Assembly (NCBI GenBank): GCA_034780895.1
Contig: JAUZTB010000017.1
Span: 30,956,285-31,020,284, forward strand
DNA length: 64,000 nt
Reading direction: 5' to 3'
DNA from: Rhynchobatus australiae
Taxonomy: Eukaryota
The notes under the pieces are model-generated. The model saw nothing but the letters and a program-made list of their open reading frames with translations. It made no database searches and had not been told where the DNA came from. This document shows positions 3,600-61,964 of the stretch, one piece after another (positions within the stretch are counted from its first letter, which is position 1; every line of letters begins with the position of its first letter). Made by a program: the position numbers and the translations under genes.

Positions 3600-3712
3600 A
3601 TCATGGATGCTGCAACTCTGAAATAAGAGCAGAAAACGCTGAAAATTGTCTGTAGGTCAGGCAGCATCAATAGAAAGAGAAGCTAGCATCTCTGGGTCAA
3701 TGACATTTCACA
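3600..3712 (-). mobile_element. Penelope-derived short repeat with degenerate hammerhead
   Basis: ctgaaataagagcagaaaacgctg...aggtcaggcagcatc matches the reverse complement of the copies at 35530-35655 and 61841-61964. Confidence 0.6.
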
Positions 3713-3905
3713 AATGCTATTCCATTTATTTTGTTGCATGCTGCTCCATGTTGGCTTCACATTGACTTCTGAGCTTAGTAATTTCTTTGGCCTATTTCAT
3801 CTTCCTCCTTAGTTATTTTGGCCTTTGCTCGCTGCTTTTGGATCCTTTTGCTGTAATGTAGCTACTCCAAATCCTTAAATAATTTCTCACATTTGCCTGG
3901 TACCA

Positions 3906-4034
3906 TAAGATAAGATCTTTATTAGCCGCATGTACATCAAAACACACAGTGAAATGCATCTTTGCATGGAGTGTTCTGGGGACAGCCTGCAAGTTTGCCA
4001 CACTTCTGGCACCAACAAAGCATGCCCACAACTT
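3906..4034 (-). mobile_element. 3' part of HE1/V-SINE (Rex-like tail variant)
   Basis: Reverse complement agttgtgggcatgc...cagaacactc...gatgcatttcactgtgtg...aataaagatcttatctta matches 49849-49937. Confidence 0.8.
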
Positions 4035-5039
4035 GATCAGAATTAATTCTTTATTTCAAATATTGTTCTTATCAACCTGATTTTTAATCAGAATAAAGGA
4101 TGAAGAGAAATTGGTTTTGTTCTCCATTTTTATGCTCATCAGCACAATCCTCTTGGTTTTTGAGGGGCCTGACTACTTCAGCTCTGAAATCAACCAAGCA
4201 CCCTAATAGCGAATATGGTATTCCTTTTGTGCACCAAGGGAAGATTCCTTAAATGTTATATCATTGATAGATCAAGTGTTGCTGATGATTTTTGTTTCAT
4301 TGATTATTGTATTGGGTTGCAATTGTATTGCAAAGCCATATTTGATTTTGGGAGATTCAGAAGCTTCATGTTTTTTTACTATTTCCTGACTTCAAGCCTA
4401 TGCCTCAGAAATGTATTAATTAGGATTTGCAGTCAATGTGGCACTCAACTGATGACTCACTGTCAAAGCAAGTAATTTCAAAGCTCAGTGCTTTGAAAGT
4501 ACTTGTTATGACAGTAATCTGTCTGGGTCTGAACTACCTACCATAAGTTTGAGTTTTGGCATTAAAGCAGAAAATGGAAAGCATCAGATGAAGCTAATCT
4601 ACTTTTAGAAGCAGGATGAGCAAGAAAAGAGTACACAAGGTGTTAATCTGTGTCATGCACTTTGATTAAAGAAATTTTTTTCTTTGTTTTATCGTTCAGA
4701 AATAAGCCTTTTGAGTAAGTTGTGACAATCTTGGTAAAAATCAAGAACCTGATTTTTTTTTGTCTCAACTTGTATTTTCCATTACGGATTATTTAGTTAA
4801 TAGAATCATAAATTTATTTTGGGAAGATGTATTTTGAGGCCAAGCCTTGATCCAGTTCTGACCCAATATACCAGGAGCAGAGTGACTGGCCAAATTACAT
4901 AATGACCGTAGTACTGACCTTAACATTGTCATGTTTGAAACCAGCAAAGTCAGCACACATTGGGGGAAAAGTTTTAATTCCATATGAAAATAAATTCTGG
5001 AGACTCTCTTCTTATTCATGAAAATGCTGTATCTTGCTA

Positions 5040-5515
5040 CATCCCTCCCCTCTTTCTTCTACTCCCCCCCCCCCCCCACTTTTTTATACTAGCTGTCTCT
5101 TTCCTTCTAGTCCCAAACATCGACTGTCCATTTCCCTCCATAAATGCTGCCTGACCCACAGTTTTTCCAGTGTTTTGTGTGTTGCGCTAAATATTCTGGA
5201 AACAATCAGCAGGTCATGCATCATCTATGGATGAAGTGAATTTAGCTGATGTTTTGGATCTTAGAGTTTCAGAACTTAAGTCTCTGTCTGAGTGGGTCAT
5301 AAGTGCTGAAATATCAATTGATGTCTGTTTTTTTCCACAGATGGTGCCTGAACTCCTGTGTAATTGCTGGAGAAACTCATCAAGTTATGCCACATCTGTG
5401 GTGGGAGAAACAGTTAATGTTTCAGATGAACATTATCAGAACTGAAATTTGCATGTTTTGTGTTGCAGGGGAGGGACGGAGAGAACAAGGGAATACCTGT
5501 GATAGGGTGGAGATC
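5040..5515. mobile_element. Cluster of four partial Penelope-derived hammerhead repeats in alternating orientation
   Basis: + copy ~5085-5185 (atgctgcctgacccac), - copy ~5190-5275, + copy ~5300-5360, - copy ~5365-5445 whose reverse complement is CAGTT CTGATAA tgttcatct GAAAC ATT AACTG. Confidence 0.6.
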
Positions 5516-7199: not shown

Positions 7200-9330
7200 A
7201 AACAAATAACAAGAAACTACAAGTAAGTTTGCCTGGTATTTGACAATGGGGAAAATGCTAGAAATCATTATTGAGAGCTAGGACCATGATATTTAAAGTC
7301 ATAATACAATTGAAAAGAATCGGTATGGTTTTATGAAAGAGAAATTATGTTCATTAACTTTATTAGTTCTTTGAGAATGTAATATGCAGAATGGACAAAT
7401 GGGAGCTAATATGTGCGATTTGTTTTGGTTTTCTAAAAGGCATTCATTTAGATGCCATGCAGTGTATTGTGGAGGGTCGTGGCTGTCATGTGACAGCACT
7501 GCCCCTACCTGGTTGGAAGACACCACTGCCAATCAAGGTTTGGCCCCGCCCCACCCATCAGTGCACATCTGACCACTGGCCTTTGTGATCAATTAGTCCT
7601 TGCTGGCACTGGGCCATTGGCCTTTTTAAATTACCTGGGCTGGACCCCCCCCCCCCCCCCAAGCCCTCCAGCACTATAAAGAGTGCCNNNNNNNNNNNNN
7701 NNNNNNNNNNNNNNNNNNNNNNNNNNNNNNNNNNNNNNNNNNNNNNNNNNNNNNNNNNNNNNNNNNNNNNNNNNNNNNNNNNNNNNNGGGTCGTGGCTGT
7801 CACGTGACAGCACTGCCCTTACCTGGTGGGAAGATACATCACTGCCAATCAAGATTTGGCCCTGCCCCACCCAGCAGTTCACACCTGACCACTGGCCTTT
7901 GTGATCGATTAGTCCTTGCTGGCACTGGGCCATTGGCCTTTTTAAATTACCTTGGCTGGACCCCCCAGCCCTCCCGCATTATAAAGAGTGTCACATGTCC
8001 TCACTCTCTCTCTCTTTTGTCTCTGAGGGATTCACCCTGCTTCGCTCCAGGCTGAGCACTGTGAAACGGCACTGGAGAAATCATTGGTGAGGTGTGCACT
8101 GTTAAAAGGGGTGGGAGCATTCTAGTTAGTATCCCTGGTAGCATAGAGCCATGCCTGCACTGAGTCAAGAGGTGGCAGGTATCATATTGTTTTTCCTTGA
8201 TTGTCTGTATCTAGTTCATTTTGTGTGTGTGTGTGTATTTTACCCCTGTTGTGATCTTCCCACACTTGCTATAAACTGTGTGTGTGTTATTCCCGTTACC
8301 CTTTCCCCGTGTTATGTCTTTTGCAAATAAATCATTTATCTCTAACACTGTGTTCATAGTCCTTGTCCGCTGAGATCTCAAACCTGTTTCACAACTTACA
8401 GGTAAAAATTCTCGGGGGATTGGGGTATAATATATTAGCAGGCATAAAAGATTGGCTAAGTTATAGTCAGGGTAAATGTATAATTTTCATCTTGGCATGT
8501 AATAACTATTAGGGTGCCAGAGGGATCAGTACTGAAGCCTCAGCTACTTACCCTCCACTTAGGACGAAGGGATTGAATGTATTATGGTTAAATTTGCTGA
8601 TGGTGCAAAGATGGGTGGGTAAACCAGTTGTTAGGAATATGTAGACTCTGCTAAGGGATATATAGATAGTTTAAGCAAATGGGTGAAAATTTGGCAGATG
8701 GAATATAATATGAGGTCATGGAGTTTGCTATGAAGGAGTCAAAAAGCAGAATGTTATTTGAATAGAGAGAAACTACAGAATTCTGCAGGATGGAAAGATT
8801 TGGGTGTCCTCACCCATGAAACAGAAAATGATTATGCAGATACAGCAAGAAACTAGGACCAATGGAATGTTACCCCTTCAAAGCTGATGGTGTGCTTTTC
8901 AAAAACAAATGGGGAAGCCCCTCTACAGTTGTATAGAGTGTTGGTGAGACACATTTTGAAGTACTAAGAACAGTTTTGGTGTTATTTAAAGAAGGATGTA
9001 TGGTAGGTTGATTCATGGATATTACCTTTTGAGGAAAGGTTATGTGGGTTGGATTTAAACACTAGAGTTTAGAAGGTAGCGGGCCACTCATATTGAATTG
9101 CACAAGGTAGGTCCTGTGAGGATGTTTTTTGTCATTCACGTGGGAACATAGATTCAGAGTACGATTGAGATGAAGAAAAAATTTCTCCTGGCTTGACTTT
9201 ATGGAGTTTTGTATAAAAAAATCTGTGGAGAGAGTCATGTATGAGAAATGCAGATTTTTTTGTGCATTTTGGAATGGGCTAGAAAGTAGGGCAGAGGTCA
9301 AGATTGGATCAGATGGTCTTGTGGACTGTT
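7200..9330 (+). mobile_element. Degenerate CR1 LINE (RT and 3' end) interrupted by an LTR element
   Basis: agggtgccagagggatcagtactg (GVPxGSVL) at ~8511, aaatttgctgatggtgcaaagatgggtggg (KFAD..KMGG) at ~8590, gatttgggtgtcctc (DLGVL); many stops. Confidence 0.75.
7468..8393 (+). mobile_element. LTR element: two related LTR copies separated by an assembly gap
   Basis: Starts TGTGGA and ends TTTCACA; TATAAA box and AATAAA at ~8326; 7474-7687 is repeated with about 15 differences at 7788-7992; no clear TSD. Confidence 0.65.
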
Positions 9331-10742: not shown

Positions 10743-11038
10743 ATGATTTATAATGTCCATCTTGAAGGAAGCAAAATGAATTTCTAGAGCTGCAAAACAG
10801 TTGATTTCTCACAGTAAATTATCTCTAATATACTGAGCAGAACTCTGTTATCTCATACAATACTTGAGAGTCCAGCTGTTCAGTTTGAATGATCATGGGC
10901 TTTATCAACTGGTAAAGTTTATCTGGCATTTACTTAAGACTCCCACAAAAGGGCTAGACTCGGAGTTCAGCCTTTCTATTATTTCAGGGCTTCAGCAGGG
11001 ACATCTTGAGAACCGCCACTGCAAAGGCCATGCTATGA
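10743..11038 (+). promoter_or_regulatory. Upstream ORFs in the predicted PLCE1 5' UTR
   Basis: ATG 10743 MIYNVHLEGSKMNF*, ATG 10753 MSILKEAK*, ATG 10889 [11 protein letters not shown] 11030 ML*; valid only if the 10667 acceptor is used. Confidence 0.45.
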
Positions 11039-11085
11039 CAGTCAAAGAAAAGAATCGGATGAATACTGAGAGTCGTTCTTTCAAG

Positions 11086-12282
11086 ATGACCTCTGAAGAA
11101 ATAGTTTCTTCTGTGTTTGCAACCATGGGATCAGGAAAGATGATATCGGCCCAGTCAGCTGAAGATGAAAATAGGTTGAGTAATTCGGGCTGCGACGTTA
11201 AAATAAGGCATGTTGTCAATGAGGGAATGCTGGCTGCAGATCCAATGTCAATCCTTCAGAGTCCTCCTGAGGCTCCTGCAGAGTTTCAGGGGGTAGCGCA
11301 CAGCACACTGCCGACGATGAGTGTGGCACAACTGACTGCAAAATATAATGCTGCAAGTGGAATGGAACTTAAGGGTAGTGTAATGGGAACTGCAAGCTCA
11401 AATGTGGGGTGCCACAATGGAAATGGATACTTATCTAGACAGAAAAAATGTGATTCCAGCTTGTTTTTAGAGAAACTCAAGCCATGTCAATTGCAAACAG
11501 GTGAAGGTGTACACTGGAACCCCAAGATTCGCCCCTCATTCTTGGGTGCAGGGATCAAAAGAGAGGAGAATGACTCAACAGAAGAAAAGTCTTCCATAGA
11601 TATGCCATTATTGTGCAGCCAAACAGCAATGGAAGATAGTTGTACAAATGGTGGCTTGAAGATAAAGCACCTTGCCAGCTGTGAGAATAAGCAGAACCAT
11701 GTCTTTTATCCTGGACAGGGTTCACAGGAGACTTCCATTTTCCATGTTGAAGATGACTATCAATCCTCAACCTTTACTTGTGCATCAAATATGTTATTTC
11801 CAAAAGACTACATTGGGGAAGGTGTCCACAACAATAATTACAATTGTCCAAGCTTGAATGCCACACAGGCAGGATTAGGCACAGACCAAAGAAAGCTGAA
11901 GATGAAACCCTTGACTGCTGCAGGCCATTTGATTGATCGATTTCCTCTAAAACCTCCCAATAGCTATTTTGAAGATTCAGATGATGCCTGTGATGAAGGG
12001 ATGGAAGATGAATTTAACAGAAACAAAAAAGAGCGGTCCACTTTACTGTTTAGAAGATACAATAAGAATAACCGAGAAGTGAAGAAATCTGTTTATACAG
12101 GATCCAAAGCACGGACAAGGAGGTTACCATCGGGACACATAGGTGCAAAGGCCAGGAAGGCTGTCAGCCAAAAGAGAAACATTAGTCATGATGTCAAAGT
12201 TGCTAAGGTTCCCAGTGAGAAACTCATAATATGCCAAGCTATGTTGATGATGGATAACTGGACCAGACCCAACAGGTATAAG
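11086..12282 (+). CDS. PLCE1: Phospholipase C epsilon 1, first coding exon (399 codons, N-terminal region before the RasGEF domain)
   Basis: [28 protein letters not shown] matches the recalled human N-terminus [28 protein letters not shown]; [40 protein letters not shown] matches human [40 protein letters not shown]; ends at a phase-0 donor AAG|GTAAGA (12282/12283). Confidence 0.93.
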
Positions 12283-14017
12283 GTAAGATGCCACAGATAA
12301 CCCTGATATGCTGGCTAATGTAAGATGTTTCTTCATGATTGTGTAGTTGGAATTGAGATATTAATGTTGGCTTGGTGTTCAGAAATTCCCATGTTGGAAT
12401 TGGTAGTGAAGCATTCACCAGGCAGACTAGTCAAAATAGAAATGTTGATGTGGGCTTGAATTGCATTTAATGAACAAGTGCTAACTGCAACAGAGTTAAC
12501 TTTTGTTTTCCATATATCTACACTTACCATAAAACACCTGTGTAAATACTGAGGTGAAGCAGGAGTACTGGTGTAGAAAGTATGCGAAAGACTTAGGAGT
12601 GACTCTGCAGGAATACTAAACCAGGAGCAATTGTTTATTATGTGCAATAATTTTTTAGGAATGTTTAATCAGTTTCACATGTAATAATAACATGTTTTGT
12701 GACTTTCCTCATGATTTATTCTTTTTTATTCAAATTTAATGAACTGTAGGTAGTATGTAAGAGGAGATTTTGATTTGTGGTAGCTGAATTTCAACATAGT
12801 TGAATTGATTACTGGTGGTGAATTAGAAGATGAAGGTAATTATTTAACAAAATTTATTGAGAATTGTAAGTCACAAATGGAGACTGATTTTGTATTATTT
12901 TTCCTTTCAACAGAAATGTTCTTTATTTGGTTTCTTTAATTGCTTTCTTCCATTTTACCAAATTAAAGAAATTATACAAAATTAGAGCAAAATGAGAAAT
13001 AATGCCCTATTCAAGGCCACCACCTCCAGTTTCCATCCCTTTCTCAGAACCAAATCCTCCCTGACCAAAATCACTAAATGACTAATCTGGATTATGCGTT
13101 CATGCGCTAGTCTGGTACTTGAATCACCTGACCTACTAATGCAGAGGTGAGGGAGTTCATATTGATCCATGTAGACACAATATAAGACCTGTTAATGCTA
13201 CTTGGATAGTCTATGACCTCAGTCACAATATAAAGTATATAAGTGTAAGCTTGCTTGGCAATGGAAACACATACCTCATGTGTAATTTAGTGCTTCATCA
13301 CATTTGGAGCACTTTGATATTATCAGTAGGTATAAAGGTTAAATGCTCTATTCACTACCATTGTTATACAATCTGAGCAGAGAAGGTTCAAGCTCAATTG
13401 TACGTAAATAAAGCAAAATTTATTAATGTTAGTTCTAGATCNNNNNNNNNNNNNNNNTAAAGGGGAATTATTTTTGCCTGAAGGAGCAAATATCTTTAAC
13501 AAATAACTTCCAGTTGCTCCGCAGGGTGCATCCCTGTGATCCAAACAGGCAACAGTGATGACAACAGCGTTAGATCCCTACTCTCTGTAGTGAGAAAATA
13601 AAGTTTTTTTTTCTCTCTGAACCAGCTCAAGTTTGTTGCTTCTTTGCTTCATTCTCAAGATCTATTGTTGATAAAGATGAGAGCAAAATGTATTATTTAA
13701 TGGTTAACAGTATAAACATATGTTGTCATGTGACTATTTCAGAAGTTTAAGATATGATTGAATGTGAATAAACATGACAGCTGTGTGATAGCTGCTTTTA
13801 TGAAAGATACAATAGAAAACCATATGTCTGTAAGGGCTGCAGGTTCTACATTACTATTTGTAAAGAAGGTAACAAGGAGAGCTAAACAAATCAGTGCAAC
13901 AATGTGTTTAAAATCATATGCATGGTTTTCATAGTCCTTAAAAGTGCATGCATGCTCAATATAATACCACTTTCCTCTTTCTTAAAAAAATTACAAAGCC
14001 AATCTACAATATTATAT

Positions 14018-14270
14018 TGTAGCGACTTACCGTTCACGAACTGGCTCCCATGATCGCGAGTGTCGTCGGAGGCCCAGATACTAGATGGCGTGGGGCACTC
14101 CTCCTTTGTTCGGCTAGGGGAGCCCGTGTGTGGGAAGGTCACGTGACCCACATGTGACATCAGCGCGGGAACTGTGATTATTAAAAGGGCAGTGCACCCC
14201 GGTCGTTCATCTGACTCTTTGACTTCAAACAAGTGTCTTGTGTCTTTATTCAGCGCAGCTAGCCGCTACA
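14018..14270 (+). mobile_element. Solo LTR of the CsRn1-clade Gypsy family, 4-bp TSD ATAT
   Basis: TGTAGCG...CGCTACA termini flanked by atat on both sides (14014-14017, 14271-14274); reverse complement of the LTRs at 16916-17170 and 18785-19029. Confidence 0.9.
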
Positions 14271-15139: not shown

Positions 15140-15490
15140 GTGGTGGAGGCCAAGAGGAGATCTGATTTATCAAAATTATGAGAGGCATAGATAGGGCAGA
15201 CAGTCAGAAACTTTGTCCCAGGGTAGAAATGTCNNNNNNNNNNNNNNNNNNNNNNNNNNNGGGGGGAAGTTTTTTTTTGCAGACTTGTAGGTGCCTGGAA
15301 CAGACTGCCAGGGATAGTGGTGGAAGCAGATATGATGATGGTATTTAAGAAGCTTTTAGATAAGCACATGAATATGCAGGGAATGGAGGTATATGGAGGC
15401 AGAAGAGGTTTAGGTTAATTTGGCTCATGTTTGGCACAAACATCATAGGTTAAAGGGGCTGTTCCTGTGCTGTACTGTTCTATGTACTAA
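15140..15490 (+). mobile_element. CR1 LINE 3' end
   Basis: aaaattatgagaggcatagatagggcagacagtcagaa...gtaggtgcctggaac...aaggggctgttcctgtgctgtactgttctatgt. Confidence 0.8.
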
Positions 15491-15859: not shown

Positions 15860-16760
15860 CTTATGGCTAAGCACAGCTCCAGTGCCGTATACAAATTCGC
15901 TGATGACATCGCTATTGTTGGACCAATCACAGGTGGTGATGAGTCAGCTTACCAGAGCAAGGCAGGACACCTAGATGAGTGGTGAAACAACGACAACCTC
16001 TCACTCAATGTCTTTAAAACTAAAGAGCTGATTTGTTGACTTCAGTAAAGGGAAGGTGGGGAATCAGCAGTGGAGAGAATCAGCAGCTTTAAATTCCTGG
16101 GTGTTAACATATCAGATGACCCATCCTGGTCCCAGCACATGCAATCATGAGAAAAGAACATCCGCATCTTTACTTTCTTAGGAAGCTTGGCTTGTCACTG
16201 AACACTCTAACAAACTTCTACAGATGTACTGTTGAAAGTATCCTGACTTGTTGCATAATAGTCTGGTATGGCAATCTGAATATGCAGGAACATAAGAAGC
16301 TGCAGAGGGTAGTGGACTCAGCCCAATACATCTTGGGTACATCCCTTCCCACCATTGGTAGTATCTACAGGAGGCGTGGCCTCAAGAAGGTAACATCCAT
16401 CATCAAAGATTCTCACCGTCCAGCCCATGCCATCTTCTTGCAGCCACCATCAAGCAGAAGGTACAGAAGTACGAAGTCCCACATCACCATGTTCAAGAAC
16501 AGCTACTTCCCTGCAACCATTCAGTTCTTGAACCTACTGGCAAAACCCTAATCACTGCGGTTTAGCAACCCTATGACCACTTAGATCACTTTACACTAGA
16601 ATGGGCTTTTTTTGGTTCTAATTGTGTTCTTTTAAATTTGTTTTTCTTGTGAATGCTGCTTTTATGATGTTATGTGCCTGTGATGCTGCTGCAAGCAAAT
16701 TTTTTCATTGCACCTGTACTTACGTGTACTTGTGCATATGACAATAAAATTTGAGTACCT
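15860..16760 (+). mobile_element. Rex1/Babar LINE, 3' RT portion and tail
   Basis: YKFADDIAIVG (ORF 15797), FKFLGVNISDD, LYFLRKL..LTNFYRCTVESILT (ORF 16147), tail gtgcatatgacaataaa. Confidence 0.9.
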
Positions 16761-17229
16761 TGCAAAACAATGCTACATTTTCCCAGTGGTGTCTCGTAGA
16801 ACAACTCTTATGTGTCACAAGCCAGTGATGAAGTGGTCAAGCCACTTCTCTGGAGCGTGCAGGCTGAGAGGAGACCTGATAGAAGCTTATAAAATTAAGA
16901 GGCACAGATTGACAGTGTAGTGGCTAGCTATTGCTGACTAAAGACAGGAGACACTTGTTCGAGGTCAAAGAGTCGAATGAATGACTGGGGTGCGCTGCCC
17001 CTTTTAATACTCACAGTTCCTGTACCGATGTCACGCATGGGTCATGTGACTTTCCCACGCGCGGGCTCCCCTAGCCCAACAAAGGAGGAGGAGTGCCTCG
17101 CGTCATCTTGGATCAGGGCCTCCAACATTCGCGATCGTGGGAGCCGGTTCGATAATGGTAGGTCGTTACATAGACCCCTGCCCCCACCCCAAGAACCGGC
17201 AATGCCGTCGCGAAAGCCAGGATTAAATA

Positions 17230-18747: not shown

Positions 18748-21069
18748 GTGGGTCCAAAAACGTTTGGGCCCGTTGGGTCACCAATGTAGCGGCTAGTTAT
18801 GCTGAATAAAGACAGGAGACGCTTGTTCGAGGTCAAAGAGTCGAATGAACGACTGGGGTGTGCTGCCCCTTTATTACTCACAGTTCCCACGCTGACATCA
18901 CGCAACCTTCCTGTGCGCGGGCCTTCCCAGCCCAACGAAGAAGAAAGAATGCCCCGTGCCATCTTGGATTGGGGCCTCCGATGACGCTCGCCATCGCGGG
19001 AGCCAGTTCGATAGTGGTAAGTCGCTACAGCTGTATCTTTTTCCCAGGGTCAAAATGCCTCTGTGCTAGAGGGCATGCATTCAAGGTGAGGGGGAAAATT
19101 TGAAGGAGATGTGCAGGGCAAGTTTATTTTTGTACAGGGAGTGGTGGGTGCCTGGAATATGCTGCCAGGGGTGGTGGTGGTGGAGGCAGATATGATGGAA
19201 GTGTTTAAGAAGCTCCGAAATAGGCACATGAATATGCAGAGAATGGAGGGCTATGGATCATAATTATGCATCATCTTAATTAGTTTAGCATAACATTGTG
19301 AGCTCAAGGGCTTGTTCTTGTGCTGTGCTGTACTGTTCGATGCTCTAATGAGTGACCATGTTCTGTTCTGTGTTCTCCTCTGGGACCTCAATGATATAAT
19401 TTGCACTTGACAACAATGCAGTGTACAGGGTAAATGGTTAAGACATACTGTACTTTTAAAGATCACCATATCCATTGCACACACTGCCTGACATCATCAC
19501 TCTCTACCTTGAGAATCCCATCTTCCATTACTTTGCACTTGATTGCTGCCATGCTGCTTCCATCCTTGTTCCCAATGTAGCATCCATGGGTTCTTCTTTT
19601 TGTTGTCAGTAAGGCTACTAACAAGGCTAGAACTTCTCAGCAAGTATTCTCTCCTGAATGCAAACACTCAATTAACAATCACTGACACAACAATGAATAA
19701 ATGTGACACCACATGCTACATGTTGTTCTTAAAGATGTGTGCTCAATATGTATAATGATCTTTTTCCTTCTCTTGCCTCTTTTTGATGTCTCCATCCAAC
19801 TCCTTTGAATCTCAGCTGCACTCTTGAAGCATGCAGTTATGTGATCCTGCTGTCATGAACACGAGATCCCTTGCCATGATCCCTTCAAGTTAGGTTATCA
19901 TTTTACAGAAAAAAATTATGGTCCAGATTTTGCTGATAAATGTTGGCAGTTCTGAGGTAGAGTCAAACACAGAAGACTCAGCATTACTGAACAGAAGAGC
20001 TAGCCATATATGAATATTCCAGTGAGTGCAGGGGTGAAGCTCAATCTCGCTGAGGTTTCCTGCACTTACACAGGGGAATCAGACCTTGCGTCTGAATCGT
20101 GTTAGATCTGACACAGGATCTATGACTCCATTGATTTCAATGGGGATTGTAGGGTTATGGATAAGGAAAAAGGGAAGATGTATCCTTTAATTATTTTTGA
20201 TTTCATAATGTTAACTTCAGGCTAAGTGAACTTCCAATATGAATGATTATGTTCTGTTGATATCATTCAAGGCATGTGCCATTTTCACTGAGCCACACAT
20301 TCCCAGACCCATCAGTGAGAAAAGGCAGCCAATGCCATTCTGATTGAGATAAACTAAAAGAAAAAGTAATAGCTCTCCCACTGCCACTAGCTGCTTTTTA
20401 CATTATCCCCATTGGCTTTGGACAAAAGTTGATGTCATGAGCTGAAGGTGAGTCCTTGAACTTGAAAGCATGCTTGCTTCGGCTTTTTCAGCTCCTATTC
20501 TTGTTCCAGGATAGAATTGTAAAGGTCATCTTGTTTTAAACATGCCAGACAACTTGTTTGTGCTGAAGAAAACCAGGAAATGAACAACAAAAGGGCCAGT
20601 GAGAAGAGAATGTAATAGCAGACAAGTCAACTGAAACCTACTGGCCGTTGACTGATCTACACACTTTCATAACTTTGGATTTCTCCATATTGTGATCATG
20701 CTCTAGTTAAATTCTTTTAAATTGCCTACTGCAGCTTCCAGTAGTGCATTGAATCATGTAGTGTAGAATCAGCCCAGTTCAGCAAATATTTTTATTCCCT
20801 ATTCATTCCACTGACTATATTTTTTTTCCTTTGAAACACGCCACCTATTCTCTTTTGGGAGGTTGCTCTTTAATCTGTTTTTACCGTACTTTCAGGCAGT
20901 GTATTCTGGGTCATAACTTGTTGACTAAAATTGTTTCAGTATTTTCCTTTTTAGGCCTTCCAAATACAGTAAGGCTCATTTATTTTGGTTTTTAAATGTT
21001 ACATATTCAGATGCATTTCACATTTATTCTGAAAAGAAATACAGTAAGCAGATTTGTGTATTTTGGATC

Positions 21070-24779: not shown

Positions 24780-25435
24780 GCACCTCTCCCTCTCTTTCTG
24801 ATCTTCCCTCAGTCCTCCCATTTTTTTTGTTCCCTTTGCCACCCCGCCCAGCCCCCCTTCACCCATCTTTGTCCCCCTTCCCCTCCTGGTTCCACCCACC
24901 CACTTCACGTACGGATTTCCTCCCACTTCCTCCCCCCGCCCCATTCTGGTTCTACCTGCAATTCACCTCTCCCCTAATGGTTCCCATTCTCGCCTCCTTT
25001 ACTGATCAGAATCCGGCACTGGTAGCATGTTGTGTTCCTACTTGTCTCTCTCCAGGAGCTGTCTCCATTCTTCATACTCCCCCAGCCCCCCTCCAACTTG
25101 CTAAAAATACTTTTTCCCTTTTTCTTTCTCTGTCTGCCTGCATCCATAACTCACCTGCTACTATCTTCCAACTCAATCCCTGCTCGCCTCCCCTACCTGG
25201 CACTACCTGCCTGTCATCTTGCACCCCTCTGTCCACCAATTGCCTCTGAATCCTTTCTCACTACTCCCCCTCTCTGTATACTGGTCAGTTCGCCTCAACT
25301 CCTCTGAGTCCTGATTCAGGGTTTTGACCCAAAACGTCAACAATTCCTTTTCCTCCCACAGATGCAGCTTGACCCACTGAGTTCCTCCAGCAGATTGTTG
25401 CTCCAGATTCCAGCATCTGCAGTCTCTTGTGTCTA
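24780..25435 (+). mobile_element. Penelope-derived element: C/T-rich region plus hammerhead-like terminal unit
   Basis: Long pyrimidine-rich tract, then AGTC CTGATTC AGGGTTTTGACCC AAAAC GTC at 25307-25338, then gatgcagcttgacccactgagttcctccagc...cagcatctgcagtctc. Confidence 0.7.
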
Positions 25436-26264
25436 CAGTATTTGGTTTCCCTTGAAATGGTGGGTGAGATTGCCTCCAATTTGCGACTGAGTAATTTCAC
25501 ATACTGTGCACATTGCCTTCTTTGCACTGTGAGCTTTAATCTAGCATTATGGACTCAAATTGGTATTGCCCTCCCCTCTTTGGTAGAGTGCTCAGCCCAC
25601 CCTTCAAATGTGCTTGCATGTGTCCAACTGGAGACAAATCATCCAAACAATGGGCATGCAGCTGAATTTTATGACTGAACTGTTTTGAAAAGTTGATTTA
25701 TCAGAGGGCCCAGATTTCAGGTGATTGGCAAAAGATCCAGAAGTAGCGATATGGAGAAACATCTTTACGCAAGAAATGTCAGAACTAGTAATGCACTGAT
25801 AACAGGTGGTGAACACAGACTGAATAGTAGCCATCAGTAGAAAAATAGATTAAAAACTTGGAAAAACAAAGAATTACAAAGATTTGGAGGAAAGAAACCC
25901 TGTTGAATGGGACTAGCTGGATTACTGTTTCATAAATTTGGCACAATCATAATCAGGTTGAGGCTGTGATCTTTTGTAAGATGTTAGGCTTTTTGTTGTT
26001 GAGCTATGTGATGGGACTATGTTATTTCTACACCGTGTATTGAGGCTGCAGAGCATCAATACACACACTTTATAAAAACAAATGCCAGCCTGGGTCATGA
26101 GTGACAGGAGATAGTGAACTCAATAATCAGGGGATTGAAAAGGACATTCCACTATCTTGGACCATACTGCTGCTGTGAGGATACTTCTGCTAATCACATT
26201 TTCAAAGAACTCTTAGCAAGCTTGTTATGCATGATTTTCCTTTCATTTAAACCATATTTAATGG

Positions 26265-38564: not shown

Positions 38565-38770
38565 TTGAAATCTGAAATAAAAATAGAAAGTACTGGAAGT
38601 ACTCAGCAAATCAAGTGGATCTGTGGAGAGAAAAATGGTGTCAATCTTCCAGATGGAAGGTTATTGATCTGAAACATTGCTTCTCTCTCCACAGATGCTG
38701 TTTGACCTTCTCGTTATTTCCAATATTTTCCACTTTTATTCACGATTTAAAGCATTTGCAGCTTTTTGCC
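38565..38770. mobile_element. Inverted pair of Penelope-derived repeats around a hammerhead-like core
   Basis: Left arm tctgaaataaaaatagaaagtactggaagtactcagc..gatctgtggagag; right arm ctctccacagatgctg..ttccaatattttcc..tttattc; core CAGATGG AAGGTT att GATCT GAAAC ATT at 38650-38678. Confidence 0.65.
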
Positions 38771-39219: not shown

Positions 39220-39345
39220 TTGTCAAAGCTGAATTTATTGTTCTATGCACAGGTGAAATGAAAAATTTACTTGCATCAGCATCACAGTTGCATAGCGTCA
39301 TATAAGCAGCAATCACAAGAAAAGCATAAATTAAACATAAAGCAT
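39220..39345 (-). mobile_element. Rex1/Babar 3' tail fragment
   Basis: tttattgttctatgcacaggtgaaatgaaaaatttacttgcatcagcatcacag...agaaaagcataaattaaac; matches 56825-56935 and the reverse complement of 16640-16750. Confidence 0.7.
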
Positions 39346-40099: not shown

Positions 40100-40330
40100 A
40101 ATGAAAAGAAACTGCAGACGCTAGAAAAATAAAACAAAAACAGAAAACACTGGAAATACTTAGCAGGTCAGGTTGTATCAAACTTAACATTTCAAGTTGA
40201 AGACTTTTTGTCAAGAGCAGGGAAGGAGACACAAGGAGCTTGTTAAACTGTAGAGAAGATGGGGGAATAGGTTTGCCTCTGATAGAGCAATATATGACGT
40301 GGCCTTCATGATGTTGTTGGGCAGAAGCTG
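40100..40330 (-). mobile_element. Penelope-derived repeat (degenerate)
   Basis: aactgcagacgctag...cagaaaacactggaaatacttagcaggtcagg...ttaacatttcaagttgaagactttttgtcaag. Confidence 0.55.
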
Positions 40331-47342: not shown

Positions 47343-47571
47343 GGTGGCACAGTAGCGTAGTGGTTAGCACGACGCTATTACAGTGCCAGCGACCCGGGTT
47401 CGTTTCCCGCCGCTGCCTGTAAGGAGTTTGTATGTTCTCCCGTGTCTGCGTGGGTTTCCTCCAGGTGCTCCGGTTTCCTCCCACATTCCAAAGACATACG
47501 GGTAGGTGAATTTGGGGCTTAAAATGGGCGGCATGGACTCGTTGGGCAGGAAGGTCCTGTTACCATGCTGT
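47343..47571 (+). mobile_element. HE1/V-SINE, tRNA-derived, CR1-type tail
   Basis: Pol III A box TAGCGTAGTGG, B box GGTTCGTTTCCC, V-domain gtgtctgcgtgggtttcctccaggtgctccggtttcctcccacattccaaagac, tail gggcaggaaggtcctgttaccatgctg. Confidence 0.9.
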
Positions 47572-49577
47572 TAGATCTCTTCTAAATTATCAGCAATAAG
47601 TAAGCTCAATTCAGTACACGACCGTTTTTGGTCATGTACTCCATGGAGTCATTGTAACATTTTGATGTTACCCTCATATCCATTATTTTGCTGTGGTAGT
47701 ATCTTTTTTTATCCTGAGGTTTTCAGCTAGCCTTGACCTTGAATAAGCCCTGGCCGAAGAGTTAAAGAAGGCAGTGGCTTGCTGGCAATGAAATGCATCC
47801 TTTTTAGGACCACTAAGTCAGAATAACGAAAATCCAAAATATTTGTGCATCATGTGTTCTGCATGTTCAATGATGTTTGCATTGGAGGTGTGAATCTATG
47901 CTAGAGTTCTAATCTTCATTTTCAAGTTGACCACTGCCACTTTTAGATAGGTGCTCTGCAGACAAGGAAGGAACAACAGCAATTGTTGAAAAGCTACAGC
48001 ACTTTTGGAGAGTGTGAAAGTCCTAATTTACTTCTTTAATGTTAATATTCCACATAAAAGCAGTGTCAAACAAGGCAGAAATTCTCATCGTGGTTTATAT
48101 CCAAAGGAAGGAGGCTATTTAGGCCTTTATGCCCATGCAATATCTGCTGACTTTCCCTCATATTGTATATACTCCACTGCTTCAAATATTAAGTACAAAA
48201 GCTGCAAAAATGCAATTAATAGCTAATTCCAATGCTATTACCACAATTAGGATCTCACTGTGTGACGAATTTAGACGTAAAGGCATATTGTAACTATATA
48301 GCCCAGAAATTTCAGTATGAAGTTCATGCAACTATGCTGAAATATTTGAGATTCATTTTTACGCTGATCTAATGATTCACACTGTAGATGCATACACAGT
48401 CCACAATATTTTTAAAGTATCTTTATTTCTACAAACTACTTGCACTGATCATGCTAACTGTCTGCTCTTTCTTTTGTTAGCATGAGAATGATATTTCAAA
48501 CTTTGTGACCAGTTTTGATCAGAGATCCATTTAATTTGAAATTTGAATCAAAGTACTTAAACACAGGTACATTAATGGCTTTAAATCAGTAAAGTAACAT
48601 GAACCCACTGCAATGAATGATACAGGTATTTTTCCTGGTTGTTGTGCTTTCATTTGTGAAAATATTGCTTGAAGTCCACGGTACGCATAATGATTTAGAA
48701 ATGGATTTTCTATTAAATAAACAATTGGATCTCTCATATTGTAGGATGATGAATTCTATTTTTGTAAGATTTAACACTGTCCAATTTGGAACAGATGACT
48801 TTATTTGAAGACCATATCTGCACAGCAATTCCTCAGTTTAGGAATGTTGTGAATGCCATTGACTCTTTGGGATGCTTCTCTTTGATTCCTATAGTTATTT
48901 TTCACAACGAATTGTGCACCACTCTCTACGTAAAGGAATGTACCAAAGTGCCCAAAATGCATTTTGATCTGCCTTACAATTTACAAAATTTTGTTTCATG
49001 AATTGATTTACAAGAATGTATCCTTTCATGATCAGGGGAATGGCTAAATCTCAGCATGGAGCAAATCACAATACTTTCAATTAGTAGTTATTACAAATGT
49101 GGACACTTTACTTTGTTTCTTTACAATCATCAGATACATTCATAAAAATAAAGGATATTTTCAATTAAAGATTTAAAAAATGATGCGCAATTTGAAGACA
49201 CGCAAATGAGTTAAGTTGTAGTGATAAATATTTTTTATTATTATGATTGGGCGACCAATATTATTCCAAAATTACTAAGATAACAGAATCAACATTGAAT
49301 ATGACATTTATTCTGAATCCCAGTTGTTTCACTTGGTTTACTTCCTGTTACCTTTTCCACAACTCCTGAATAGTCTTACCTGAATTGACCTTACCTAATT
49401 CATCATCCTTGAATTTTAACACTACAATGTTTTACTTCTAATTTTTGATTTCTCACAATCAGTCAGTTCCATCTGATAAATGGATAGAGTTAACTTGAAC
49501 TTTCTTCCAAAACAAATAGGCTCCCTTTATTACTTCTCCTTAGATCTGTCTCACTTTGTAATCTTTGTTTCTCTTTT

Positions 49578-49697
49578 AGAACATAGAACAGTACAGCACT
49601 GGACAGGCCATTCAGCCCACAATTTTGTGCCGATCTTGATGCTGATTTATACTAAATGTCCTCCTCCTGTTTGTCATCCATATCCCTCCATTCCCTT
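49578..49697 (-). mobile_element. CR1 terminal tail
   Basis: agaacatagaacagtacagcactggacaggccattcagcccac...catccatatccctccattccct. Confidence 0.8.
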
Positions 49698-50115
49698 GTA
49701 GCGGTTAGTGTAACGCTATTACAGTGCCAGCGATCCGGGTTCAATTCCCACCACTGTCTGTAAGGAGTTTGTATGTTCTCCCCGTGTCTGTGTGGGTTTC
49801 CTAGGGTGCTCTGGTTTCCTCCCACATTCCAAAGACGTACGGGTTAGGAAGTTGTGGACGTGCTATGTTGGCACCAGAAACATGGTGACACTTGCGGGCT
49901 GCCCCCAGAACACTCTACGCAAAAGATGCATTTCACTNNNNNNNNNNNNNNNNNNNNNNNNNNNNNNNNNNNNNNNNNNNNNNNNNNNNNNNNNNNNNNN
50001 NNNNNNNNNNNNNNNNNNNNNNNNNNNNNNNNNNNNNGGTAGGTTAATATGGGGTTTAAAATGGGCGGTGTGGACTCGTTGGGCTGGAAGGGCCTGTTAC
50101 CATGCTGTAAATAAA
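49698..50115 (+). mobile_element. HE1/V-SINE(s): Rex-like tail before the gap, CR1-like tail after it
   Basis: gtagcggttagtgtaacgctattacagtgccagcgatccgggttcaattccc head and V-domain; 49849-49937 matches the 3906-4034 tail; 50038-50110 matches the 47502-47571 tail. Confidence 0.85.
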
Positions 50116-50189
50116 ATTTAATTAAAAAAAATTAAATTTAATTTAATAAAATAATGAAAAATAAAAAAAACACTACTGATCCTGGAATT

Positions 50190-50285
50190 TTGACAAACAG
50201 TTGATCACCCGAAACATTGATTGTTTCTCTTATCACAGATGCTTCCTGATCTGAGTTTTCCCAGCATTTTTGGTTTTTGTTTCTA
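50190..50285 (+). mobile_element. Penelope-derived repeat (degenerate)
   Basis: cacccgaaacattgattgtttctct..cacagatgcttcctgatctgagttttcccagcattttt. Confidence 0.55.
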
Positions 50286-56814: not shown

Positions 56815-57375
56815 AAATCAAAGTTGAGTTTATTGTCATATGCACAAGTGCAATGGAAAAACTTGCTTGCAGCAACATCACAGGCACCATAGCATCATAT
56901 AAGTAGCATTCACAAGAAAAACATAAATTAAAACGTGTACACGATCTGTACAAGAAAGAATACAATTAGAACAAATAAGTTCAATTTTAGTGCAAAGTGA
57001 TCAAAATGGTCATGGTGTTACCACACTGCAGTGACTAGGGTTCTGCTCGTCAGTTCAAGAACCAAATGGTTGAAGGGAAGTAGCTGTTCATGAACCTGGT
57101 GGTCTGGGGCTACGGGCTTCTGTGCTTCCTGCCCAATGGTAGCTGCAAGAAGATGGCATGGCCCAGATGGTGGGGATCTTTGATGTTGCTGCCTTGAGGT
57201 AGTGCCCCCTGTAGATAGGAAAGGTGGGGAGGGATGTGCCTATGATGTACTACTCTCTGCAGCTGCTTGTTTTCCTGCACATTCAAATTGCTGTACCAGA
57301 CTATGATACAACCAGTCAGGATACTTTCAACAGTACATCCATAGAAGTGTGTTATAGTGTTTGGTGACAAGCTGG
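56815..57375 (-). mobile_element. Rex1/Babar LINE 3' portion
   Basis: ORF 57110 LSPNTITHFYGCTVESILTGCIIVWYSNL; reverse complement of 16190-16750. Confidence 0.85.
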
Positions 57376-58157: not shown

Positions 58158-58287
58158 AGAGGACCTGGAGGAAACCCATGCGGTCACAGGGAGAATCTGC
58201 AAACTCCACACAGATGCAGTCAGGATTGAACCTGGGTCACTGGCACTGTGAAGCAACTGCACTGCTAGCTGCACCACTGTGCCACCT
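58158..58287 (-). mobile_element. HE1/V-SINE 5' part
   Basis: Reverse complement ggtggcacagtggtgcagctagc...gacccaggttcaatcctgac...tgtgtggagtttgca..ttctccctgtgaccgcatgggtttcctccagg. Confidence 0.8.
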
Positions 58288-59079
58288 AAATATATTAAAG
58301 ATATTAAACTTTCTTTATGCCTATTTGTGATGAAAGCCCAGAATAAACCCAATTTTTAATTTAATTCCCATTAGAAGAACTAAAAAAAACTGCAAACTTC
58401 ACATGCTTGAAAGATATGGAATGGCTAAGGCAGGCGGACAAATACTCAAGATTCTAGGGCACTATTCAGAAGTCAAACCAGAATGCTCAACTTGCTGAGT
58501 ATTTTTAGAATTTTTTTGTTTTTATTTCAGATTTCCACCATCTGCAGATTTTTATCATTCCAAAAGAATTGACAAAAGGAGCTTTTTTTAACCTTAAAAC
58601 TGTAATCTAGGTATAAAGCAAATTGATTATTTTTAAAGCTTTTTTTTCATGGTGTAGAAGTCTTGATGTGTTACTGATGGGTATTAACAGGTAGAAGTTT
58701 AATTTGCCCTGTTTAACTGCACAGTCTTCCAGTTTTTGTCTGATTCTCAAGGGGAAGGTTATAGGTTTATTAATCAAAATTAATCTAAAATGTGTTGACA
58801 AATTCCCTCATCTTGACTAAAATATTGTAAATGAAAAGGCCACTTTACCATGAAATTTACCACTTAAATTAAATTGATTCTACGTGGGATCAACNNNNNN
58901 NNNNNNNNNNNNNNNNNNNNNNNNNNNNGTTTTTATTAAAGTAAATGTGGCTGTGTTCAATTTGAGGCATTTACAGTGATTTTCAATATTCTAAGGAGAC
59001 TGATTATCAACCACTACCAAGCCTTAAATTGCAATGGAAGCCAATGAGGATAAAATTTTTGTTCAAGAAATGGAGACTT

Positions 59080-59098: not shown

Positions 59099-59199
59099 GA
59101 GCCACTATTCTCAAACTATGTGTGAACTTGCCTTTTGGAGGTTTTTGTTTTGTTCATGACCATTGTTGGGGTTTTTAGGTTGTTGCTTTGTGGCACTGA

Positions 59200-59690: not shown

Positions 59691-59944
59691 GTGCCATCAC
59701 ATTGTAAATATCTTTGTGCTTCAAAATACGTTTTAATGTAGACTTGATCTCTATGTGATTGTAACACCTGAGGTGCAAATTACAACTTTCAGTTGTGTGT
59801 AATGTGCACACACAGGAAGCTCTTAGTGTGACGCCTCCCCTGTGAAATTAGTTCATGGATATGCATGCATGACATAGTGGGAAAGCAGGTCTGAATTGCA
59901 GGAGTGAGCACCAGTGCTGGTCAAAGTAATCATCATTTTAAAGT

Positions 59945-60590
59945 GGAGACAGAAGGGACTGCAGATTCTGGAATCTGGAGCAACATACACTCAGGTCAAG
60001 CAGCATCTGTGGGAGGTAAGGAATTGACAATATTTCAGGTCAAAACCCTGCATCGGGAATGAGTGGAGAAGCAAGATGGCCAATATGAAGAGGGGAAGGG
60101 GAGTGGTGAGACAAGAGCCAGAGGTGATTGGTGGACTGAGGAGGGGTGCAAGGTGATACATAGGTTGTACCAGGCAGGGGAGGGGAGTAGGGGTAGAGTT
60201 GGGATGAAGTAGCAGGTGAATGATAGATAGAGACAGAGAGAAAGAGAGGAAAAATATTAAGAGGCAGATGGAGCAAGGTGGGGGAAGGAGTAGCAGGTGA
60301 ATGATAGATAGAGACAGAAAGAAAGAGAGAAAGAGAAAGAAAGAGAGAAAGAGAGGAAAAATATTAAGAGGCAGATGGAGCAAGGTGGGGGAAGGGGACT
60401 GTGAAGATAGGAGACAGCTGCTAAAGGGAGATGAGTAGAAACACAAAGCTACCAGTGCTGGACTCTGATAAGGAGGTGAGAATGGGAATCATCAGGGGAG
60501 AGGTGAATGACAGTTGGAACCAGAACCGGGAAGGGTGATGAACACTTTGGGTGAACTCTGTGTGTGTGAGTGAGAGAATCAGGAGGGTAA
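59945..60590 (-). mobile_element. Penelope-derived element with hammerhead-like unit and purine-rich body
   Basis: Reverse complement of the 24780-25435 family; core attc CCGATGC AGGGTTTTGACCT GAAAT ATT (60024-60060). Confidence 0.7.
60211..60397. repeat. Tandem duplication (~80-105 bp) with GA microsatellite expansion
   Basis: agcaggtgaatgatagatagagacag...aaagagaggaaaaatattaagaggcagatggagcaaggtgggggaagg occurs twice. Confidence 0.85.
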
Positions 60591-61199
60591 TTATTTTAAA
60601 GAACCCTCTTTACAGCCACAACATTGAAGCCGCAACAGTTTTGAACACTGTATGTTTGTTACACAAAGCACTGGTGCTTTGACTATGATTCATTGAACCT
60701 GTGGCATAACCAGGAGCTGGAGAAGAGGATTCAGAGGCAATGCCATCTTTGCAGAGAAGATCAAAAAAGGATGGAAGAGAAGCTCTGACTGAGATGGCAT
60801 ATCCCCCAAAGGTTTTCCAAGAGCATTGCTCCTATATCAACCTGTCTGAAGAGCAACTAAGATAGTAGCTAATTTAGGTTCTGTCCAGAAGTGCTGTCAG
60901 GATGTGCCTTACAGCTCCAAGGTTCATTCAAGAATTCGTTCCCATTTAACTTGGTTAAAACAGAGAGGCAATGCATTCCTCAAGTAGCAGGATCTGACCA
61001 CCATTCTGACTTTGAATAATAAGTAGCAGTACTACTGTTCAACAATAGTTCCTGGTCAGGACCACTTCCAACAAACAGATGTCTCACCATTTCTTTGATA
61101 TACAGCAGACATTATCATTGCTCATTANNNNNNNNNNNNNNNNNNNNNNNNNNNNNNNNNNNNNNNNNNNNNNNNNNNNNNNNNNNNNNNNNNGTCTAT

Positions 61200-61500
61200 A
61201 CATGCCTCTTTGAGTGGTTCAACCTGCTTCACAAAGTCATTCCAGCATCTGCAAGACACAAGTTTAGCTTGCGAGTTCACTTCAATTTCAAAGACACTTA
61301 AGAATACTCTGCACTTGTCTCTGTAAATGTAGCTCCAATCATCAGTGAACATCCCTATTTCTGTATTTGGGGGAAGAAGTAGTTTGCTTTTGAAGCAGCT
61401 GAAGATGTTTGGGCCTTGGACATTCTCCAGACAAATTCTCACTGTGATGTCCTAGAGCTGAGAGATTGAGCTCCAACAATCATAGCCACCTTCCATTCAC
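61200..61500 (-). mobile_element. CR1/L2-group LINE RT fragment
   Basis: ORF 61125 NVQGPNIFSCFKSKL...EIGMFTDD resembles GSVLGPTIFSCFINDL...EVGMFADD. Confidence 0.65.
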
Positions 61501-61840
61501 TGCTCTCCAACAGTCAATGGAACATCATATTATTGGTGTGCACCAGGGAGAATAATCTCCAACCTTCCTGTTACATCCCTACCCTACCCTACCCAGCAGC
61601 CCACCAGAGGACATAGAAGGCTTTCAAACATTGAAGACATCTGGGCCATCTGAGAAGATTTCATAGTTGTCAGCAATAGATTCTCTGACCACAGGGAATC
61701 AAACAAAGATGGGCTCCCTAACTTGTGCTCAGTTAGGCCTCCTTTCATCACAAGACAAAGGAGCAGAAATAGGCTATTCGGTTTTGTCCTACCAGCTGCA
61801 TTTCATGTGGTTTCTTGCATTGAAGCAGTGACATCAAACA

Positions 61841-61964
61841 AATTCCAGATGAAGGGTCTCGACATGAAATGTCAACTGTCAATTTTCCTCTGTAGATGCT
61901 GACAGACCCCCTGAGTTCCTCCAGTGTCTTGTGTTGCTCTGGATTCAAGCATCTGTAGTCTCTT
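61841..61964 (+). mobile_element. Penelope-derived repeat with near-consensus hammerhead core
   Basis: attc CAGATGA AGGGTC tc GACAT GAAAT GTC aactgt (61842-61879), then gatgctgacagaccccctgagttcctccag...gcatctgtagtctc. Confidence 0.7.

Follow-up and report, generated by a model that had tools for sequence, protein, structure and literature searches.

The closest described counterparts of the repeat analysed here are the minimal hammerhead ribozymes in the pLTRs of metazoan Penelope-like elements (PLEs), whose consensus reads CUGANGAH, stem II and GAAA-N-palindrome-N-U-H, with U-rich flanks (PMC4209133, Fig. S3). They occur mainly as solo, dispersed and heterogeneous copies ascribed to truncated elements: coelacanth has ~4,000 and Xenopus ~9,000 (Cervera and de la Pena 2014, PMC4209133), and cartilaginous fish are absent among the accessible rows of Fig. 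S3 and Table S1 of that paper. An expansion of PLEs has been reported for the introns of whale shark. In the available portions of PMC8557442 and PMC3846280, 5′-truncated EN+ PLEs (Neptune or Penelope/Poseidon) are described with a common 3′ end, varying 5′ length, an adjacent inverted truncated copy placed head-to-head, a hammerhead near the 3′ end and a tail-to-stem-I arrangement. Non-LTR retrozymes derive from PLE pLTRs, are non-coding and carry a type I hammerhead, and their definition requires a tandem array in which two or more complete hammerheads follow one another; the accessible part of the preprint reports them in the single chondrichthyan genome sampled, with monomer derivatives dispersed (bioRxiv 10.64898/2026.07.22.740005).

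A 64-kb stretch of DNA from a cartilaginous fish, Rhynchobatus australiae, was analysed (the whole stretch is called the window below). It contained 16 pieces at 12 sites on both strands, all decayed copies of one abundant repeat. We put the probability at roughly 0.75 that these pieces, which now look dead, are 3′ ends (the pseudo-LTR region) left by 5′ truncation of a Penelope-like retrotransposon; a minimal type I hammerhead was likely present in its master copy. The repeat resembled the PLE hammerheads in the order of its parts (CUGAnGA box and bulged base, stem II, GAAA box, putative two-base palindromic centre, UH, short stem I), in its U-rich flanks and in its solo, heterogeneous copies; it resembled truncated EN+ PLEs in its fixed 3′ end, variable 5′ length and head-to-head pairs. 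Unlike the former, the window copies were too decayed for a hammerhead descriptor and had no linked ORF; unlike EN+ PLEs, the window showed no RT/GIY-YIG ORF, partial tandem or clear target-site duplication; and unlike retrozymes, it held 0 tandem units and 0 complete hammerheads. No printed account of such a family in sharks and rays was found in the open-access literature.

An iterated nhmmer profile gave 18 matches in the window at E ≤ 1 and 16 at E ≤ 0.0013. It had been trained on 13 of the 16 pieces and recovered the others untrained: a piece running from the GAAA box to mid-tail at 5306–5361 (plus strand, E 1.4e-6), a short tail fragment at 37882–37908 (minus strand, E 0.0013), which the original prediction had not listed, and a tail-only fragment at 58485–58547 (plus strand, profile positions 64–125, E 8e-7). 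The last had been counted as a copy at 58480; the repeat was present there, but its hammerhead part was absent. Eleven reversed or shuffled control windows gave zero nhmmer matches below E 0.6, and a covariance model built from the window copies found no additional credible copy. A dispersed family was thus confirmed at each coordinate originally named, and the density foreseen, about one copy per 5 kb, agreed with the 12 sites in 62,167 called bases (one per 5.2 kb).

The repeat had been described as a short hammerhead unit, which proved too narrow: the hammerhead-like part was only its 5′ third, a conserved tail of ~100 nt ran 85–99 nt beyond the cleavage position, and two copies had ~500 nt more upstream. 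Tail variant A was found at 5075–5201 (plus; nhmmer 5111–5201, E 5.5e-19) and at 61841–61961 (plus, truncated within stem I, E 8.4e-26). Variant B was found on the minus strand at 3604–3718 (hammerhead part badly decayed; nhmmer E 1.2e-22, covariance model E 0.43), at 33706–33827 (E 1.7e-28; a CUGAUGA box with a 3-nt deletion in alignment A4, which excludes the 3600 and 5110 copies) and at 40109–40218 (a deletion following stem I, E 7.2e-20), and on the plus strand at 50187–50285 (a shortened tail, E 2.7e-19). The two long copies were 24927–25437 (plus; hammerhead remnant 25306–25343, tail to 25437, nhmmer E 6.8e-26) and 59944–60542 (minus, detected by nhmmer and blastn; hammerhead remnant 60061–60024, tail end 59944–59946). 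Their pyrimidine-rich upstream parts (~380 nt in the 25.3-kb copy) matched each other at 73–74% in blastn over a common sequence of ~500 nt. Upstream extent thus varied from none to ~500 nt, with one copy at ~40 nt. The upstream part of the 5075–5201 copy was short and pyrimidine-rich.

Two head-to-head inverted pairs were present. At 38565–38763, an inverted 5′-truncated arm (38565–38675, minus, E 6e-20), with true homology from ~38655 near the GAAA box, faced a forward arm beginning at the CUGAUGA box (38647–38763, plus, E 2.6e-24), and the junction contained a hairpin of −17.5 kcal/mol (DNA parameters). At 5187–5361, a minus-strand piece (5187–5264, E 2.5e-14) lay head-to-head with the piece at 5306–5361 and tail-to-tail with the 5075–5201 copy. 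Tandem Repeats Finder (TRF) returned five rows of period 8–20 in the window, none of them a unit of the hammerhead repeat, and no partial tandem forming pLTRs was found there. Matches of 7–9 nt, at chance level, were obtained as target-site duplications at five of nine boundary pairs tried, none convincing.

Contigs of three public runs (X1, X2 and X8) held thousands of related copies that end sharply at one 3′ position and differ in their flanks; X1 is possibly the source of the window itself and so gives no independent support. At 59944–46, the common 3′ end of the family, loose ends occurred in 1039 (X1), 1050 (X2) and 1205 (X8) contigs. The summed depth in X1 was 264,442 in the tail bin vs ~5.5 in unique flanks, a figure that is not a copy number. 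Head-to-head inverted junctions were seen among the contigs of all three runs, as were tail-to-stem-I joints (59983 or 59985 to 61844), in 2–3 contigs per row at 80% likeness. The 61841–61961 insertion also occurred in contigs of two other organisms, where records 16 (X2) and 32 (X8) bridged one junction each. Among the 40 of 174 contig difference rows that were listed, none fell within the hammerhead core. Run X7, tentatively taken to be RNA, supplied 32 contigs, from which no conclusion on expression is drawn.

In 12 aligned pieces the column majority gave a CTGATGA box, a bulged A, stem II (GGGT../..GACC) and GAAA, matching the PLE consensus in the accessible Fig. S3 of PMC4209133. The minimal type I reading is supported by the column majority of the family; no single copy passed the minimal-hammerhead descriptor. 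The CUGAnGA box and bulged H were present in the majority, and the box was complete in one piece of the 12 (35531); GAAA was kept in nine, U16.1 in all 12, and H17 was C or U in all 12. At the palindrome position CG was intact in one piece, but 10 of the 12 had either CG or a deamination product (CA in 4, TA in 3, TG in 2, CG in 1), from which we infer an ancestral ACGU palindrome. Stem II paired in 33 of 40 cells (eight rows), its first pair being G-U in 4, A-U in 2, G-C in 1 and C-C in 1; since position 11.1 is a CpG site, CpG decay points to an original G10.1-C11.1. Much of the variation among copies is CpG-type decay. The CpG observed/expected ratio of the window was 0.21, the median pairwise identity of the copies 56%, and conservation 0.84 in core columns vs 0.83 in tail columns.

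Individual copies were less complete. The best-kept one (35529–35652, plus, E 1.3e-31) retained 12/12 scored core bases at 35531–35564, so the claim that no copy has a fully intact core needs qualifying, but its palindrome was lost, only 2/5 stem I pairs remained and it was not predicted to fold as a hammerhead. The minus-strand piece at 5362–5443 (E 1.3e-15) kept 5/5 stem I pairs and a box with one change, and its 5′ strand of stem II was deleted. At 5109–5125, offered as an example of an AGTC/GACT stem I, both stem I strands are kept in a copy that has lost its CUGAUGA box and stem II by internal deletion. Six copies were folded, and none was significantly more stable than its shuffles (z −1.2 to +1.2).

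Compensatory changes in stems I and II, as originally proposed, were not borne out. The observed covariation score was matched or exceeded by 82 of 500 shuffles and was not significant, and RNAalifold predicted zero pairs from the alignment of copies; the sample of 8–12 decayed copies is too small to exclude covariation. In a hand-registered test on all usable rows, stem I had P 0.79 and stem II P 0.007. On removal of the three rows at head-to-head junctions these values became 0.72 and 0.19, and the stem II signal was discarded.

Could the hammerhead be a chance fit to degenerate copies of an ordinary retroposon tail? In the window the descriptor found 0 matches with at most one core change, and its 17 matches at two core changes compared with 11–18 in six shuffles. 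No Rfam hammerhead family matched the window (E ≤ 5) or two of the copies (E ≤ 10), models that are possibly blind to forms without helix III, and the absence of an RNAalifold structure or covariation points the same way. Against this, in the column majority the two boxes, bulge, U16.1, H17 and complementary arms follow one another in the expected order at the expected distances, and stem II pairs well. The named structure, although derived from these same copies, paired in 66% of cells vs 16–47% for slid partners. Contigs of X1, X2 and X8 moreover supplied a CAG absent from the 61.8-kb copy, which completes its 5-bp stem I. We consider a chance fit very improbable. An unlikely, though less remote, reading takes the hammerhead and ~100-nt tail as a non-autonomous element in itself, producing its own transcript and moved in trans by a Penelope-like enzyme. 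In most window copies the 5′ end does fall close to the hammerhead's 5′ edge, with no recognisable sequence in common upstream of it; the window revealed no remnant of an ORF; and the accessible part of bioRxiv 10.64898/2026.07.22.740005 describes monomeric derivatives of PLE pLTRs in vertebrates. In addition, in 309–365 contigs of each DNA run the match to the 61.8-kb copy breaks off at 61844, and the letters upstream differ from contig to contig; this is, however, the cut site of the reference copy itself, and the loose ends are therefore no evidence of a common start. ARAGORN found 0 tRNA genes and Rfam no tRNA, 5S or 7SL match, although a decayed head might escape. The missing tandem units and tRNA-like head, the ~500-nt upstream extensions of two copies (and ~40 nt in one), and the fixed 3′ end with inversions make plain truncated PLE 3′ ends likelier than the retrozyme/SINE-like label first given. 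A wider version, slightly more doubtful again, is that sharks and rays harbour a non-autonomous element of ~130–150 nt, a minimal hammerhead with a fixed tail, that is mobilised alone by a Penelope-like enzyme, with intact members cleaving in trans as dimers or exonised via splice-acceptor-like sites; if true, it would be among the most abundant ribozyme motifs of any vertebrate genome.

The remaining alternative, in which PLCE1 pre-mRNA is cut or controlled by some of the intronic copies as functional or domesticated ribozymes, is barely credible. The first coding exon of the host gene lies at 11035–12297 (plus strand; phmmer best match whale shark PLCE1, E 6.9e-130, 54–55%), and tblastn found no second PLCE1 exon within the window. 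Copies had been placed throughout the PLCE1 introns; 11 of the 16 pieces do lie downstream of this exon, but five lie upstream of it. Six of the 11 are in sense orientation, one sense copy has 12/12 scored core bases (35531–35564), and conserved intronic hammerheads are known in amniotes (PMC6155905, available part). The other five are antisense, so there is no strand bias; the 35531–35564 copy lacks the palindrome and a sound stem I; no second intact copy lies on the same strand to form a dimer; and minimal hammerheads, even when intact, did not cleave as monomers and cleaved little as dimers, according to the accessible part of PMC4209133. The repeat looks like ordinary genomic debris. Given the lack of descriptor matches at one core change or fewer, core columns no better conserved than the tail, the low pairwise identity, folds no better than those of shuffles and the mixed strands, we predict that its present copies are inactive and leave PLCE1 pre-mRNA uncut; the data give no sign of PLCE1 regulation.

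No Penelope RT or GIY-YIG ORF had been noticed in the window, and none was found: 234 ORFs of at least 60 aa gave no Penelope-type Pfam match, and read-through translation of 21–27 kb and 58–64 kb gave no Penelope domain. Truncated PLE copies are expected to lack an ORF. As the family is not linked to a Penelope RT/GIY-YIG ORF, its PLE membership is inferred from the features above. A profile of the tail frame matched 13 proteins, all short or composite and all lacking RT and GIY-YIG domains, and the idea that the tail encodes the opening codons of a PLE ORF, the situation in rotifer Penelope, was unsupported in what is a weak test. Protein searches with the upstream and antisense frames gave no match, with atlas scores all <0.8. 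P0051, tried as an out-of-frame end of a Neptune endonuclease, was rejected (its score of 8 was reached by 24/60 shuffles), and the best motif match in the window (6/10) lay away from the repeats. Exact-pattern scans found nothing in viral or genome contigs, nor did that of the hammerhead pattern in metagenome contigs; the tail pattern matched eight metagenome loci (60–67% GC) over only 21–25 nt, taken as chance.

If the pieces are truncated PLE 3′ ends, established Penelope biology suggests that the GIY-YIG endonuclease of an autonomous element would nick the target and its reverse transcriptase would copy the RNA from the 3′ end, mostly halting early. Helix III could be built in the master RNA by two hammerheads pairing via the ACGU palindrome, and this dimer may cleave after the GUC/GUU triplet. 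Because the common 3′ end lies so far past the predicted cleavage site, the cut cannot simply set the end of an inserted copy. Its position bears on which RNA is the Penelope template. The repeat extends a known motif class to the cartilaginous fish lineage and, at one site per 5 kb, would make sharks and rays rich material for testing whether Penelope hammerheads covary and cleave as dimers.

The window was searched with an iterated nhmmer profile made from its own copies of the repeat, and one reversed and 10 block-shuffled windows served as controls. Eighteen matches were obtained at E ≤ 1 and 16 at E ≤ 0.0013; 13 were training copies, and the untrained ones lay at 5306–5361 (E 1.4e-6), 58485–58547 (E 8e-7) and 37882–37908 (E 0.0013), the last a fragment absent from the original prediction. 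The controls gave nothing below E 0.6. The repeat was confirmed at every position predicted. With 62,167 bases called and 12 sites occupied, the spacing averaged 5.2 kb per site, in agreement with the predicted copy per about 5 kb. Pairwise identity among 15 aligned pieces was 36–77% (median 56%).

The unit was ~130–150 nt long, with a hammerhead-like portion in its 5′ third and then a tail, of which two variants were visible in the alignments. The tail ended 99 nt past the predicted cleavage position in the 25-kb copy (24927–25437, plus strand) and 85 nt past it in the 60-kb copy (59944–60542, minus strand), which carries a deletion; both had an additional pyrimidine-rich stretch in common (73–74% identity). 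Contigs of four among 13 public sequencing runs were aligned to window 59800–62100 at 80% likeness: 12,833 from X1 (possibly the same source as the window), 13,052 from X2 and 17,624 from X8 (both labelled as other organisms) and 32 from X7. At 59944–59946, 1039 (X1), 1050 (X2) and 1205 (X8) contigs ran into unrelated sequence (agreement about 0.35). Because more than 1000 contigs in each of these runs diverged there, the family has one sharp 3′ end. Contigs of X2 and X8 each spanned one junction of the 61.8-kb copy (61841–61961, plus strand), indicating an old insertion. Contig depth in X1, X2 and X8 was also elevated outside the repeat, at 61725–61801 and 61340–61493, which are additional repeats missed by self-comparison of the window.

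An inverted head-to-head pair was found at 38565–38763, its arms overlapping at the junction, where the DNA folds into a hairpin. The 5.1–5.4 kb cluster comprised four pieces of alternating orientation, the central pair head-to-head. In 2–3 contigs per row, a tail in reverse orientation (59983 or 59985) was joined to the stem I start (61844). The alignment tool cautions that joints of this kind arise from repeats; their presence in X1, X2 and X8 alike indicated further loci with copies arranged head-to-head. A pyrimidine tract plus CAG occurred twice per unit, just 5′ of stem I and just 5′ of the tail's ATG (e.g. window 38680–38697 and the loose ends at 61844), as a candidate splice-acceptor-like feature. 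In Drosophila virilis Penelope, helix I is described as having a splice acceptor at its 5′ end (PMC4209133).

The column majority of 12 aligned pieces ran from a CUGAUGA box and a bulged A through stem II and GAAA to two bases, U, H and, last, the stem I partner, agreeing with the printed minimal hammerhead consensus of Penelope-like elements (PLEs; PMC4209133, Fig. S3). The predicted minimal type I hammerhead stood for the majority, but its ACGU palindrome was intact in only one of the 12 pieces. The palindrome site held CG or its deamination products in 10 of 12 (CA 4, TA 3, TG 2, CG 1), and CpG-type decay was likewise evident at position 11.1 and where H17 meets stem I (window CpG o/e 0.21). 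Because these positions are so decayed, we infer the ancestral palindrome and the G10.1–C11.1 pair rather than read them directly. At 61844, 309 (X1), 331 (X2) and 365 (X8) contigs departed from the 61.8-kb copy; their loose-end consensus terminated in pyrimidines and CAG (overall agreement 0.37), and this CAG restored the 5-bp stem I missing in that copy.

Among the checks proposed with the original prediction, an Rfam search gave no hammerhead match, and a minimal-motif descriptor found 0 window sites when the core had to be unchanged or could differ at one position (0 and 0–2 in six shuffles); at two core changes there were 17 sites vs 11–18 in shuffles. That no core is fully intact held by the descriptor, but not for the copy at 35531–35564, which kept 12/12 scored core bases; it had lost the palindrome and paired at 2/5 positions of stem I. 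Six copies folded one by one gave z-scores of −1.2 to +1.2 and a hammerhead fold in none. Core columns were no better preserved than adjacent tail columns (0.84 vs 0.83). The window is predicted to hold no working copy.

The covariation score of the named structure was reached by 82 of 500 shuffles and its paired-cell share by 62 of 500; RNAalifold predicted no pairs on the repeat copies. Hand registration gave P 0.79 for stem I (11 rows) and 0.007 for stem II (9 rows). On removal of three rows at head-to-head junctions (38679−, whose 5′ half was the reverse complement of the neighbouring piece, 5280− and 5284+), these became 0.72 (9 rows) and 0.19 (8 rows), and the stem II signal was lost. 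The covarying stems were therefore not borne out among window copies, subfamily covariation being, in this small sample, unshown rather than excluded. The stem I example at 5109–5125 exists, but in its copy neither the first box nor stem II is retained.

Pfam matched five of 234 window ORFs of at least 60 aa (two RVT_1, two DUF7041, one ALKBH8_N); none was GIY-YIG or adjoined the repeat, and both RVT_1 belonged to another repeat family. Read-through of 21–27 kb and 58–64 kb with X at stops, in 12 frames, yielded no families, upholding the predicted absence of a Penelope RT or GIY-YIG ORF from the window. A test for a concealed Neptune endonuclease terminus did not discriminate: the P0051 score of 8 was equalled in 24 of 60 shuffles, and the best motif match of the window (6 of 10) did not lie at the repeats. 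The RVT_1 matches lay in LINE fragments at 83–1385 and 30882–32022 (both minus strand, 76–81% identical), which we take to be Rex1/Babar-like. LINE family 3′ ends (75–84% alike) lay at 16120–16717 (plus), with a weak ALKBH8_N match at 16120–16548, 56844–57372 (minus) and 39223–39335. Direct repeats (16913–17170 and 18782–19029, 78%) flanked the minus-strand DUF7041 ORF pieces, likely forming an internally deleted LTR retroelement, of which 14018–14270 is an inverted solo repeat. A second short dispersed family (47357–47571, 49698–50108, 58159–58249, 3948–4034; 76–90% alike), in which ARAGORN found no gene, presumably resembles a tRNA-derived SINE; a third (15263–15490, 19088–19257, 34341–34733, 49576–49696; 66–78% alike) is presumably a CR1-like 3′ end. 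A MITE-like inverted repeat had arms at 29973–30131 and 30269–30440 (71% over 180 nt, 137 nt apart). Near-identical short duplications flanking 100-N gaps (7474–7990, 32624–32807, 34341–34518) are probably assembly artefacts.

The marks observed were a common 3′ end, varying upstream length, inverted pairs, a hammerhead-shaped majority and decay; going by PMC8557442 and PMC3846280, we take these as hallmarks of 5′-truncated PLE insertions. The family is likely a PLE member, and with a probability of about 0.75 the decayed copies are 5′-truncated 3′ ends of a PLE whose master likely bore a minimal type I hammerhead. A free-standing non-autonomous unit, as originally predicted, is unlikely; non-LTR retrozymes are tandem by definition (bioRxiv 10.64898/2026.07.22.740005) and the repeat is not, so the retrozyme-like label was not kept. 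Given the hammerhead-shaped majority, a repeat with no hammerhead whatsoever is quite improbable.

Active intronic ribozymes are more improbable still. A PLCE1 N-terminus ORF lay at 10837–12297; its best matches, at 55% in whale shark and 45% in elephant shark, point to a cartilaginous fish as host. In addition, tblastn matched PLCE1 at 11035–12285 and found no second PLCE1 exon in the window. Eleven pieces (6 sense, 5 antisense) lay downstream of this exon and likely occupy one long intron, but five lay upstream, so the predicted spread throughout PLCE1 introns would apply to the former. Overall, the original observation was confirmed in part and its interpretation partly supported.

For the favoured PLE, insertion would proceed by a GIY-YIG nick and 5′-truncated target-primed reverse transcription, going by PMC8557442 and PMC3846280. 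The master hammerhead is predicted to cleave solely as a dimer, working as the minimal hammerhead of PLE terminal repeats (pLTRs) does. In a 2014 study, the monomer did not cleave and dimers cleaved at a low level (PMC4209133; review PMC6765202). The common end lies 85–99 nt beyond the predicted cut, so cleavage cannot simply define the 3′ end of inserted copies; the template would need to be circular, uncleaved or antisense, as the cited PLE papers discuss.

Solo motifs are reported by the thousand in coelacanth and Xenopus (PMC4209133) and PLEs in whale shark (bioRxiv 10.1101/443036; PMC8455134); within the open-access literature we found no published description of this family for sharks or rays. 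A tail reading-frame profile matched 13 predicted proteins, which were without RT or GIY-YIG. The tail-frame peptide occurred twice in a Heterodontus francisci PIP5K-domain gene model (P0043), by exonisation or as a gene-model artefact. Ten of the proteins were looked up, and the two with a named organism came from Scyliorhinus torazame and Heterodontus francisci, indicating that the family is common to different sharks.
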